Origin: Escherichia coli
GTDB taxonomy: Bacteria; Pseudomonadota; Gammaproteobacteria; Enterobacterales; Enterobacteriaceae
Strand: one strand, 5' to 3'
Length of the DNA stretch: 64,000 nt
Assembly (NCBI RefSeq): GCF_030384885.1
Contig: NZ_CP128613.1
This document shows positions 25,919 to 45,528 of the stretch, piece by piece. The notes beneath the pieces were generated by a model. It was given only the letters and a program-made list of their open reading frames with translations. It did no database searches and was not told the origin of the DNA. The position numbers were made by a program, and so were the translations under genes. How positions within the stretch are numbered: the stretch's first letter is position 1; the number at the start of each line of letters is the position of its first letter.

Positions 25919-27031
25919 TTACCTGTCAGTCACCCGATATTCCACGCTATGTGCTTCATCAGGTTGAGGAACTTCCAGCCTTGAGGCCATCCGCATCACG
26001 ACCGCTTCAGGAACGGCATACTCGCGCCTGGCATTTTGCTGCTTCCATTGCGCCCATGGCACTTCCAGATAAACGATTTTTACTCGTGCGCCGTAAGCCG
26101 TAAACAGACTGATGAGCTGGCTACGCAGTTGGCGGGTAATGTTCGTTGCATTCCAGATGAACGGCTTTTTCTGGCGTAAAAAAACGCGCGCCTCTTCTTT
26201 TGCCTGTTGCACAATACGCCCGGTCGCGGTTTTGTCGTCCGGGCTGGCATTGATTCGCCGCCGCATATCATCAAGGCTGATAACGTCCATTCCCTGGCAC
26301 TGTTCACTGATATAGCGATCTTTGCCCATACCCGGTAAGCCACACAGCAAAATGACCTCAAAAGGTTCAGCCTCCCAGGGAACAAAATCAGGAGAACTTT
26401 GTTCATGGGTCAGATAATGCCAGCGTGCGGAATCAGACACGAACGAGCGCACTTTTCCCCAACACTGTTGCTCCTGGCAAAATAGCTCGAACAGATCGAT
26501 GCGTTCCAGCATTGATTGCTGATCATGACAATGGCGACCAAGCAGATCGGCACGAGCAAGCAAAGCGAGCAGACGCGTGTCGATACGCATTGCAGCCGTG
26601 AGCAGCAAACGCTCCGGTTCCGGACGTTCTAGTAACCATAGCGGTAACCCATGCAGACGCACCAGTGCAACAATTTGCTCGCGTAGCACGAACGGCGTCG
26701 GGATATCGCGCCATAAAATTTGTCGGGCCGTCAATTCACCCCGACGAGCATGACCAGGAGACTGAATACGTCCGTTTTCCTGCACGGTAGTACTGCGCTT
26801 TTCAACGTCATGCAATAACGCCGCCGCCCATAAAATTTCCTGCTGCTGAGCGGGGAGTTGCTGGAACTCTGGCAGAGCCACGAGTGCATTCAGCACCATT
26901 TCAGTATGCACACCAACGTCGCCTTCACCATGATGCTCCGGGTCTTGCGGCGTATTATGCATATCCTCAACCCAGCTAAAACGCTGGCGTAGCGTCGACC
27001 AGCGTTTGTCGTCGGTAAGTTGCCAAATCAT
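25919..27031 (-). CDS. HD phosphohydrolase fused to a P-loop polynucleotide-kinase-like domain (HD-Pnk-like end-healing enzyme)
   Basis: Track ORF 370 aa: N-terminal HD signature ([10 protein letters not shown] ... LLHDVEK); C-terminal P-loop CGLPGMGKD followed by DDMRRR, the Asp/Arg arrangement seen in T4 Pnk-type 5'-OH kinases; ATGA overlap with the upstream ligase-like gene. Confidence 0.6.
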
Positions 27032-27735
27032 GACTGTTCTCCATAAGCGAACTCATGGGCCATCCGCGCCCGTCGCCAGTGGCGTTTCCAGTGCTCGGTG
27101 GTTTTGACATGATTTTTGCGTACATACTTGAAGACGTTATGCGAAAAGTCAGCGACGGAAAACGCATCACTATTCCGGCTGACAATGCCTTCCAGCGTAC
27201 AGGGTTGTCCGGTTTGCGTATCCCAGGGATCGAACGCACCGCGCGCATTGGTCAGCGCCAGAAAATCACGTTGCCAGCTTTTTTCATCATTCCCCGGCTG
27301 CGGGCCGGAGATTTCGGGAACGCAGGGGAAATCAAACAGAGCGGCGTAAAACTGCACCTCTTCCCAGCTCAGCCACATATCCTGGCAGCGAACGGCAAAC
27401 AGATAAAAATCCTGCTCCAGGGCGCGATATTCAATCGAATGAACGGCATAAAGATTTTCACCAAACAACTCCAGATCGCCGAGATCGTTTTTCAGCAGTT
27501 GCCAGCGTTGGCGAATTTTATAGGTCCATGCCGATTGTGTAGGCGCGGCATGGGAACGGGCAAACACGCCGTAGCGGTTAAGGCAGTTATTTTCACCGTC
27601 GAGTTTTTCAGTATGTACCAACTGCGAAATTGCCTGCATATCTTGCCAGTAACTGGCGTTAATGCGGTCATCGCTGGTGGTGCCAGGGGAGAAGGGGTAA
27701 TGCCAGGTTCTCCCGTATTTACGTTGGGTATTCAT
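27028..27735 (-). CDS. ATP-dependent RNA/polynucleotide ligase-like nucleotidyltransferase, Rnl2-like motif I
   Basis: Track ORF 235 aa: motif I TEKLDGEN (K-x-D-G-x-N), then [12 protein letters not shown] (motif III-like), EGIVSRN (motif IV-like), [10 protein letters not shown] (motif V-like) in canonical order. Confidence 0.6.
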
Positions 27736-41639: not shown

Positions 41640-42071
41640 TTACATCCGCATGGAAACGGCCAGGCGGTTAAAGCAATTCATCAGCCCGATGGCAAATGTT
41701 AAGTCGCTGATTTCTGCTGCGCTGAAATGCTCAAGCAAAGGCTGATAAACGTCGTCCTCCGCATGGGTTCGGGCAATATCGGTCACCGATTCCGCCCATG
41801 CCAGCGCCGCCCGCTCGCGATCGTCAAAATGATGGCTTACGCGCCAGCCTGCCAGGGCATCCAGCTTATGCTGCGGCACACCGGATTTGCGTAATGCTTT
41901 GCTGTGCATCTCCAGACAAAATGCGCAACCATTGATTTGCGAGACGCGCAAATAAACTAACTCCATCAGCGTAGTTTCCAGCGTGCTATTTTCCAGCGCC
42001 GTTTTGGCCTGCACCAGCGCGTTATATACCGTTGGGCTAAGTTCGTAGTAAGGCTGACGTAATGTAGTCAT
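41640..42071 (-). CDS. Carboxymuconolactone decarboxylase / AhpD-like family protein
   Basis: Track ORF 143 aa with the AhpD-core C-x-x-C-x-x-x-H motif (NGCAFCLEMH). Confidence 0.65.
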   Translation of the reverse strand: MTTLRQPYYELSPTVYNALVQAKTALENSTLETTLMELVYLRVSQINGCAFCLEMHSKALRKSGVPQHKLDALAGWRVSHHFDDRERAALAWAESVTDIARTHAEDDVYQPLLEHFSAAEISDLTFAIGLMNCFNRLAVSMRM

Positions 42072-42158
42072 ACAGTTTCTCCTCTTATTAACGCCCGCAA
42101 TGTAGCACTATAATGGACTGCTAAAGAGAGCCATAAATTACCTAAAAAAGCAGACCAT

Positions 42159-43493
42159 ATGCCGCGCTATCAGGATATCGCCCGTCAGTTAAAAACGGCT
42201 ATTGAGCAAGGGGAACTGAAACCCGGCGCAAGGCTACCTTCAAGTCGTACCTGGTCGCAGGAACTGGGGGTGTCTCGATCCACTGTCGAAAATGCGTATG
42301 CTGAGCTGGTGGCGCAAGGATGGCTGATCAGGCGGGGACAGGCTGGCACATTTGTCAGTGAGCAGATATATCCGCAACAATCTACTGTACAAGTTGTGGC
42401 TTTTGCCGGTGAAAGTCAGCAACCGTTGCCATTTCAAATGGGATTACCCGCACTCGATCTCTTTCCGCGAGAGCTGTGGGCGCGGGTGATGGGGCGTCGC
42501 CTTCGTACCCAGACGCGCTTTGATTTGGCGTTAGGCGATGTCTGCGGTGAGGCGGCGTTGCGTGAGGCAATAGTTGATTACTTACGCGTTTCACGTGGGA
42601 TTGATTGTCAGCCAGAGCAGGTCTTTATCACTCACGGTTATGCGGCCTCAATGGCTTTAATTCTGCACGCGCTGGCGAAACCGGGAAACGGGATGTGGAT
42701 GGAAGATCCCGGCTTTCCACTGATTCGCCCGATTGTCACTCGCCACGGTGTGGAAATTTTGCCTGTGCCGGTTGATGACAACGGACTGGATATCACAAGA
42801 GGAATACAAAATTATCCTGATGCGTGTTTTGCCCTGATAACACCAGCACACCAAAGCCCGCTGGGTGTGGCGCTCTCTTTAGCGCGCAGGCATCAGATAC
42901 TGGAATGGGCAGAGCGTAGTCAGGCATGGATTATTGAAGATGATTATGACAGTGAGTTTCGCTATCACGGTAAGCCGTTACCGGCGTTAAAAAGTCTCGA
43001 TGCACCGCAGCGGGTAATTTATGCCGGAACATTCAGCAAAGCACTATTTCCTGCATTGCGCTGTGCGTGGCTGGTGGTGCCGGTGAAGCAAATTGCACAA
43101 TTCCGCCACCAGGCGTCACTGGCTCCATGTGCGGTACCTGTTCTATGGCAGAACACACTGGCAGACTTTCTTCGCGAGGGGCATTTCTGGCGGCATCTGA
43201 AGAAAATGCGTCAGCATTATGCTCAACGTCGGCAATGGATTGAGCAAGCGTTGACGCAGCAGGGATTTCAGGTTGTGCCGCAGAAAGGTGGTATCCAGAT
43301 GGTGATCAGAATGATGGGCGATGATATTGCCCATGCGCGTAAAGCCAATGCTGCAGGCCTTGCGGTGCAGGCACTTAGCGACTGGCGTATCCGCTCAAGT
43401 GGGGAAGGTGGATTACTTCTCTCTTTTACCAATATCGTTAACGAAGGTATGGCGCGACAGGTAGCACAACAATTACGTAAAGCCTTAAGCTAA
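42159..43493 (+). CDS. MocR-type transcriptional regulator (GntR HTH fused to PLP-dependent aminotransferase-like domain)
   Basis: Track ORF 444 aa: N-terminal GntR-like HTH (SSRTWSQELGVSRSTVENAYAELVAQGWL) and fold-type I aminotransferase domain with candidate PLP lysine in YAGTFSKALFP; divergent from the CMD gene across an 87-bp spacer. Confidence 0.7.
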   Translation: MPRYQDIARQLKTAIEQGELKPGARLPSSRTWSQELGVSRSTVENAYAELVAQGWLIRRGQAGTFVSEQIYPQQSTVQVVAFAGESQQPLPFQMGLPALDLFPRELWARVMGRRLRTQTRFDLALGDVCGEAALREAIVDYLRVSRGIDCQPEQVFITHGYAASMALILHALAKPGNGMWMEDPGFPLIRPIVTRHGVEILPVPVDDNGLDITRGIQNYPDACFALITPAHQSPLGVALSLARRHQILEWAERSQAWIIEDDYDSEFRYHGKPLPALKSLDAPQRVIYAGTFSKALFPALRCAWLVVPVKQIAQFRHQASLAPCAVPVLWQNTLADFLREGHFWRHLKKMRQHYAQRRQWIEQALTQQGFQVVPQKGGIQMVIRMMGDDIAHARKANAAGLAVQALSDWRIRSSGEGGLLLSFTNIVNEGMARQVAQQLRKALS

Positions 43494-44411: not shown

Positions 44412-44861
44412 TCAGGCTTTTACCTGCTGGTAACGGCTGACTTTAAACAGTCGGCGGCAATAATCGAGGAAGTAGCCATAAACCGCCCCCATCAACATCG
44501 AAACAACGATGTTTGAACTGACCGCCGCCATAATCTGATGCCAGTCTGCGCCCACCACTAACAAGATCGCCACATACACCGGTGACTGGAACGTCACATA
44601 CGCCAGGATATCCGCCAGATTTTTTACCCAGCCCGACGGACTAACTTTGCGTGCCGCGCGCATAAACAGATCGCGGTACATACCGTATGGCCATGCAATT
44701 AAGATGTTTACCGGAATCGCTACCAATCTGGAATAAATAGACTGTTCGAAGCTCATTCCGGAGAGGAAAACTTCAATACACATGTTCACGACAGAACAGT
44801 AAACAACCATCGCGAACGTATCTGCAACTGCATGACGCAAGCGTGACTGCGGTGAGAACAT
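44412..44861 (-). CDS. alaE: L-alanine exporter
   Basis: Track ORF 149 aa with four hydrophobic segments; upstream of stpA. Confidence 0.8.
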
Positions 44862-45528
44862 GCTAATGCTCCTTAATAAAAGCGTAATGGGACGTTAATA
44901 GAGATGAAAGCAGTGGATCTCATTGCCATCTGCATTTTCGCATAGCGTATATCGCTGGCTATGACTAATCAATTAGTGAAAAATTTTTATTTAATCTGTT
45001 TTTGTAGATAAAATATTCCGTAGCGGCGCGTTTTTTGTACATTGTGGATTTTTACATGCTGATATGATTTATTTTCAATTAAATCAATTAGATATGCACG
45101 TATCTTTATTTTCACTAATGAAAGTTTGGGGGTGAGGTAACGCTATAAGCGTAGAGAGTTCGGTGTATGCAGTGACTGGGTCATTTTCAGCATTTTTTAT
45201 GCCAGACAATGTACATTAACAGCAGAAAGCACCAGTGAGTGATGTTTATTTTTATTCGTATATATTGCATTTTTATTCGATTTGGTTTTATCAGGCTTGC
45301 GGGATTAGCGAGCGGCGAGCGCCGCTCTGTTCACCAATAACCGAAATTACTCATCAAATTGGCTAATATATAATCTTGAAATTATTCTGAGAGTTTCAGA
45401 AAATAACAGCTGAAATAATCTCGTGCAGGACTGTAAATAGATTAAATTTTGTGGAAATATAATAAGTGATCGCTTACACTACGCGACGAAATACTTTTTT
45501 GTTTTGGCGTTAAAAGGTTTTCTTTATT

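Follow-up and report, generated by a model that had tools for sequence, protein, structure and literature searches.

The alaE–stpA intergenic region

The window analyzed here, a stretch of 64,000 nucleotides from Escherichia coli, carries two divergently oriented genes: alaE (149 aa), which starts on the minus strand with the ATG at 44859-44861, and stpA (134 aa), which starts on the plus strand with an ATG from 45529 in the window's list of open reading frames (ORFs). These start codons place the gap between them at exactly 44862-45528, confirming the 667 bp of the original prediction. The flanking proteins are annotated as AlaE and StpA in the record of a near-identical strain, and the gene names are therefore right. 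In an approximately 50-kb annotation from E. coli 2013C-4282, no wider gap separates two intact protein-coding genes, and the sole comparable gaps lie beside a tRNA-Ile gene at an island junction.

The G+C content of the gap is 0.346, compared with 0.505 for the whole window. Across the 64 kb, 2.5% of 667-bp windows are equally AT-rich, and those outside the gap are located at approximately 56981-60600, close to an island of tRNA-Ile and pseudogenes. The gap includes 21 runs of at least four A or T bases, in line with its earlier description as strongly AT-rich with multiple A/T tracts. The longest ORF inside it has 43 aa, so that the reported lack of any ORF of 60 aa or more also stands. The features discussed below are as follows, in window positions:

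44862-45528, no strand: entire divergent alaE–stpA intergenic region, 667 bp, 34.6% G+C
44862-44937, minus: predicted alaE 5' leader, ~76 nt, with its start placed from the conserved -10 element
44873-44935, minus: 20-codon leader ORF whose end falls in the alaE Shine-Dalgarno sequence; not considered a gene
44944-44972, minus: putative alaE core promoter, -35 TTGATT (44972-44967), 17-bp spacer, -10 TACGCT (44949-44944)
44975-45040, no strand: AT-rich blocks 5' of the alaE promoter, AAATTTTTATTT at 44981-44992 and TTTTTGTAGATAAAAT at 44999-45014
45051-45079, plus: hexamers TTTACA-17-TTCAAT (TTTAAT in K-12), assigned in silico in a SELEX study (PMC3946193)
45118-45090, minus: hexamers GTGAAA-17-TCTAAT, assigned in silico in the same study (PMC3946193)
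45101-45400, no strand: AT-rich variable central spacer, 92.0% identity to K-12
45310-45327, no strand: G+C-rich hairpin GAGCGGCGAGCGCCGCTC, 7 bp plus tetraloop, no T run on either strand
45410-45480, plus: zone of three overlapping stpA promoter candidates, from hexamer matches and alignment
45434-45439 (-10), plus: stpA promoter candidate 1, CTGAAA-18-TAAATA, in agreement with a Salmonella reporter from -83
45458-45463, plus: stpA promoter candidate 2, a perfect TATAAT that overlaps the TGG element in Escherichia
45452-45457 and 45475-45480, plus: stpA promoter candidate 3, TGGAAA-17-TACACT (TGGnnn-17-TAnnnT)
45446-45528, plus: predicted 5' leader of stpA, between 42 and 83 nt long according to which start is used, with GCGTTAAAAG at 45507-45516

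Conservation of the gap in K-12 and across Enterobacteriaceae

The gap is orthologous to the stpA-alaE region of E. coli K-12 (2798496-2799163, NC_000913.3), which has the same flanking genes in the same orientation and a length of 668 bp, compared with 667 bp in the window. Overall identity between the two is 94.6% and is not uniform: the alaE-proximal 239 bp are 95.4% identical, the central 300 bp 92.0% (24 differences) and the stpA-proximal 128 bp 99.2%, with the flanking genes at 96-99%.

To place the region in a broader context, we scanned for AlaE using one genome per species, which yielded 80 loci, and stpA lies divergently upstream of alaE in 58 of them. These 58 species include members of Escherichia, Salmonella, Citrobacter, Enterobacter, Klebsiella, Raoultella, Lelliottia, Leclercia, Trabulsiella, and Yokenella. 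In the resulting set of 60 sequences, which includes the window and K-12 and of which 53 are from outside Escherichia, the gap measures 475-789 bp (median 588), with a G+C content of 31-43% (median 35%) in surrounding 5.4-kb loci of 47-56%. The low G+C content of the gap is thus kept in relatives, and since both ranges hold across 58 species, length and composition are conserved traits of this region. The divergent arrangement is accompanied by conserved promoter architectures at both ends, and alignment with the other genera limits sequence conservation to these two ends.

The alaE side

The Shine-Dalgarno sequence of alaE, AAGGAG, is the reverse complement of 44869-44874 and belongs to a block that is invariant in 24 genera. 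Further upstream, all 60 sequences have a TTGnnn-17-TAnnnT arrangement, and its -10 element ends 73-85 nt from the ATG in every sequence except that of Citrobacter amalonaticus. Judging from this -10 element, alaE transcription probably starts near 44937. In C. amalonaticus, some 130 bp of G+C-rich sequence are inserted immediately 5' of the Shine-Dalgarno sequence; the insertion, which resembles a small repeat element, shifts the promoter from ~82 to ~211 nt off the ATG.

In the alaE leader, RNAalifold applied to 24 genera recovered just one stem, an invariant five-pair helix between the Shine-Dalgarno sequence and codons 2-3, with no covarying pairs. The pairing of GGAGC with GUUCU (44850-44874, minus strand) is available in 24 of 24 genera aligned, its positions being either invariant or subject to G-C/G-U wobble changes only. 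A palindrome at 44942-44958, ATAGCGTATATCGCTAT, was considered as an RNA hairpin because of apparent covariation between genera, and was rejected since it overlaps the conserved alaE -10 region and RNAalifold predicts no pairs there.

Upstream of the promoter, strongly conserved AT-rich blocks lie at 44975-45040. In 10-nt bins, the 53 non-Escherichia sequences average 0.97 identity to the window at 44982-44991 and 0.81 at 45002-45011. The second block (44999-45014) reads TTTTTGTCGATAAAAT in most genera, with the general form TTTTTGT(A/C)GATAAAAT. A block 5' of alaE reads TCGATAAAAT in most genera and TAGATAAAAT in Escherichia; relative to the published high-affinity H-NS motif TCGATAAATT, the former matches at 9 of 10 positions and the Escherichia form at 8 of 10. 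The AT-rich blocks are probable Lrp and/or H-NS sites; in K-12, Lrp ChIP peaks are reported at the alaE promoter (PMC10127797).

Two repeats connect this part of the gap with more distal positions. An exact 10-nt direct repeat, AATCAATTAG, occurs at 44967-44976 and 45082-45091, and an 11-nt inverted repeat, ATTAGTGAAAA and TTTTCACTAAT, at 44972-44982 and 45109-45119. The first copy of the direct repeat includes the putative alaE -35 element (TTGATT, minus strand). The second coincides with a genus-wide conserved AAATCA block at 45081-45086 and may therefore represent a further binding site or an alaE-directed promoter located upstream.

The stpA side

Three overlapping promoter candidates precede stpA. 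The TGGnnn-17-TAnnnT arrangement to which candidate 3 belongs occurs 43-51 nt ahead of the ATG in 49 of the 60 sequences, and in Escherichia its TGG element is positioned just 3' of the CTGAAA-18-TAAATA of candidate 1. The perfect TATAAT at 45458, a first guess at the stpA promoter, was set aside as such on finding it conserved only in Escherichia, Salmonella and some Citrobacter, and is retained as a candidate.

In Salmonella, an stpA reporter begins at position -83 (PMC5137417), which suggests that the leader measures about 83 nt and that transcription starts near 45446 in the window. The small RNA (sRNA) SdsR represses Salmonella stpA by pairing at, and protecting, positions -22 to -13 (Fröhlich et al., PMC5137417). 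These positions correspond to GCGTTAAAAG at 45507-45516, which is conserved in Escherichia, Salmonella, and Citrobacter. RNAalifold detected no conserved structure in the stpA leader across 24 genera (0 pairs).

The proposed central spacer

The center of the gap is the fastest-evolving part of the locus relative to K-12. Over 45101-45400, 34-87% of the sequences from other genera are gapped and identity to the window is 0.04-0.39. Approximately 45290-45400 is largely an Escherichia-only insertion, which is single-copy in E. coli and is therefore not a REP- or MITE-type repeat element; a repeat search of the gap returned only short AT-rich two-copy matches. The one G+C-rich hairpin of this segment (45310-45327) is perfect in the window and has two stem mismatches in K-12 (GAGCAGAGAGCGCCGCTC), is absent outside Escherichia, and drew no terminator call. 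In nearly all 58 species the G+C content of the center is below that of its own 5.4-kb locus (median 0.40, compared with 0.51).

One explanation, possible though in our judgment doubtful, is that the central 300 bp are functionless neutral filler, partly an Escherichia-specific insertion, and that the length of the gap is incidental. The rapid divergence of the center (92% identity to K-12, mostly gapped in other genera), the degraded hairpin in K-12, and the existence of at least one strain with IS1 inserted in the gap and of another strain without the alaE-proximal half are in keeping with this explanation. However, all 58 species hold at least 475 bp between the two genes, and Lrp bridging and H-NS filaments require extended DNA (PMC10127797). 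The length kept in 58 of 58 species, together with the depressed G+C content of the center, suggests selection on composition and spacing.

Search for a hidden RNA or small protein

The original prediction had raised the possibility that the gap is long enough to hide an sRNA or a small protein, and the searches described here lend this no support. We observed no gene-like signal between 44862 and 45528. At permissive thresholds, the best Rfam match in the gap has an E-value of 6.3 (CRISPR-DR63), which is at chance level, and a chance match to Pseudomon-groES lies outside the gap. A tRNA/tmRNA scan of the gap found none, and there are no terminator-like sites inside it. Promoter-like sites number three, where shuffled sequences lead one to expect 3.0. 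In 100-nt sliding folds on both strands, z-scores never fell below -2.1.

A residual version of the idea is that the product is restricted to certain lineages or conditions, such as a cryptic central transcript that appears when silencing by H-NS, StpA or Lrp is lifted, or translation of the 20-codon leader ORF specific to E. coli and E. albertii, which would modulate alaE translation; we regard this as very unlikely. An unannotated sRNA gene, transcribed for instance from the TTTACA-17-TTCAAT hexamers at 45051-45079, is highly improbable. The gap is long enough to accommodate one, and cryptic promoters are frequent in AT-rich DNA bound by H-NS. In addition, the region gave an RNA polymerase holoenzyme peak in genomic SELEX, to which hexamers in the middle of the gap were assigned (PMC3946193). 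We placed the hexamers of that study on the window by eye and confirmed the plus-strand pair and the AAATCA block by a position search. They are not conserved outside E. coli in the genus alignment, and the candidate region is unconstrained. An sRNA gene with its own promoter and Rho-independent terminator would be expected to leave traces that we did not find, the only G+C-rich hairpin being unconserved and lacking a T run; nor did Rfam, folding, RNAalifold or the alignment reveal a known family or a conserved sequence or structure. Published K-12 data point the same way: Term-seq under three conditions has no curated 3' end within 2798243-2800533, and none within 2798500-2799099 (PMC7815308), and the tables of RIL-seq-based sRNA predictions that were searched include no candidate from the alaE-stpA gap.

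That the gap encodes a small protein, most plausibly the 20-codon ORF in the alaE leader as a means of coupling or gating alaE translation, is highly improbable. This ORF lies on the alaE strand and overlaps the alaE ribosome-binding site. Besides the window, only K-12, E. albertii and one Escherichia sp. have it intact; three other Escherichia lineages interrupt it with a stop codon, and 0 of 53 sequences from other genera keep it whole. Its comparison with E. albertii shows 10 non-synonymous codon changes and one synonymous change, with no sign of purifying selection, and the predicted mRNA 5' end would be only about 2 nt away from its ATG, which has no Shine-Dalgarno sequence. The ribosome-profiling supplement of Stringer et al., against which the small-ORF idea was checked, has no entry under the alaE or stpA names or at nearby coordinates. 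Among the 20 ORFs of at least 10 codons that overlap the gap, only one is intact in all six other Escherichia sequences, and it extends over the start of stpA, which is itself conserved; the ORFs of 42-43 aa are broken even within Escherichia.

Regulation of alaE and stpA

Very probably, then, 44862-45528 is the known shared regulatory DNA of the divergent genes alaE and stpA, with no signal of a hidden gene. As the orthologue of the published K-12 stpA-alaE region, it is already known and ordinary.

In K-12, Ziegler et al. present the stpA-alaE region as an example of double Lrp ChIP peaks (PMC10127797). Lrp represses alaE slightly in minimal medium and activates it strongly when leucine, isoleucine, and valine are supplied, and removal of the partner peak in ygaP causes a more than five-fold loss of Lrp activation of stpA (PMC10127797). 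Atomic force microscopy in the same study demonstrated that Lrp bridges stpA-alaE DNA and that leucine abolishes the bridging (PMC10127797). The genomic SELEX survey of Shimada et al. reports the stpA-alaE spacer as an RpoD holoenzyme peak flagged "HNS" (PMC3946193), and stpA is summarized elsewhere as being controlled by Lrp, by H-NS (silencing), by osmotic shock, and by temperature (PMC4668568). The earlier description of the gap as an H-NS/StpA-bound promoter region is accordingly apt as regards the promoters and H-NS, and leaves out alaE and Lrp, the best-documented binder.

The window's own sequence adds little to these observations. Matches to the Lrp consensus (YAGHAWATTWTDCTR) and to the H-NS consensus (TCGATAAATT or TCGWTWAATT) are not above those in dinucleotide shuffles, and Fourier power of AA/TT at 10-11 bp does not exceed that of dinucleotide shuffles (P = 0.63 for the whole gap, 0.14-0.45 for parts of it). 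Consequently, sequence alone is no proof of binding or curvature. The "curved" promoter region proposed earlier does not emerge from the A/T phasing (P = 0.14-0.63), which leaves curvature unproven and would be compatible with curvature that is measured physically. Binding of Lrp and H-NS to the window's allele may be expected from published experiments on the K-12 orthologue; the evidence for Lrp, H-NS, and SdsR comes from K-12 or Salmonella, and the central segment of the window differs from K-12 by 8%.

Other members of the same regulatory networks offer points of comparison. The ilvIH operon is Lrp-controlled with an extended upstream region, similar to stpA-alaE. Likewise, the Lrp targets dadAX and oppA share with stpA-alaE AT-rich upstream DNA, multiple Lrp peaks, and modulation by leucine (PMC10127797). 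In contrast to ilvIH, dadAX, and oppA, a single region is shared here by two divergent genes, and its partner site for Lrp is located more than 1 kb away, inside ygaP. The H-NS-silenced proU, bgl, and hns regions resemble the alaE-stpA gap in having low G+C relative to the genome; unlike that comparison set, the gap belongs to the core genome and was not horizontally acquired.

In the model that we favor, the gap would act as shared regulatory DNA for alaE, which encodes an L-alanine exporter, and stpA, which encodes an H-NS paralogue, the two being transcribed divergently, each from a core promoter followed by a short mRNA leader at its own end of the gap. Lrp oligomers may bind the conserved AT-rich blocks 5' of the alaE promoter and sequences 5' of stpA. 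As in K-12, these oligomers would bridge to the second site in ygaP, leading to activation of stpA in minimal medium, and, in the presence of leucine, would turn slight repression of alaE into activation. H-NS would also occupy the AT-rich DNA and silence stpA. The central ~300 bp would be a spacer of which length and AT-richness are kept and sequence is not, probably providing a low-specificity binding surface and appropriate spacing for nucleoid proteins. Finally, the stpA leader would offer a pairing site for the sRNA SdsR. The promoter hexamers, the transcription starts, the assignment of blocks to proteins and the role of the central spacer are proposals of this model.

This locus is well established as a model of DNA bridging by Lrp and of the control of stpA and alaE by H-NS and Lrp. 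To this, the conservation pattern observed here adds a map of the conserved core promoters, of the near-invariant AT-rich blocks 5' of alaE, and of an unconstrained center with maintained length and composition. The map indicates no new element and could guide the choice of bases for mutating Lrp and H-NS binding.

Occurrence in E. coli and the allele of the window

The gap is present as a single copy in 5419 of 5426 complete E. coli genomes. Among the 20 records listed, none has an annotated feature inside the gap except for the IS1 insertion in strain PK8277, and the K-12 MG1655 equivalent (2798496-2799163) has no feature annotated. The gap of the window is 99.8% identical to that of E. coli 2013C-4282, and 45280-45400 is 100% identical. 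Identity to the window reaches at least 99% in just 15 of the 5419 complete genomes, while 5385 fall at 90-95%, so that the allele of the window is a rare one and stems from a divergent lineage of E. coli. AlaE of the window is 98.66% identical to the K-12 protein and 97.99% identical to that of E. albertii, with about equal scores; its identity to AlaE of the E. coli genome chosen by the species scan is 95.3%, below the E. albertii match.

Two natural variants were noted in the pair PK8277/QL57EC (records NZ_CP080133.1 and NZ_CP172108.1). PK8277 has IS1A inserted inside the alaE-stpA gap, and in QL57EC the megablast match spans query positions 327-667 only, leaving the alaE-proximal half unmatched. 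These strains could reveal dispensable parts of the region.

The window also differs from K-12 in gene content elsewhere. At ~41640-43493, between nrdH and ygaM, it holds two genes absent from K-12, where nrdH directly follows ygaM; their products are a carboxymuconolactone decarboxylase family protein and, divergently encoded, a PLP-dependent aminotransferase family protein. Similarly, at ~25919-27735, from luxS to emrB, there is a gene pair annotated as "ATP-binding protein" and "RNA ligase family protein", which is presumably missing from this position in K-12 and could be an inserted accessory or defense-type module.
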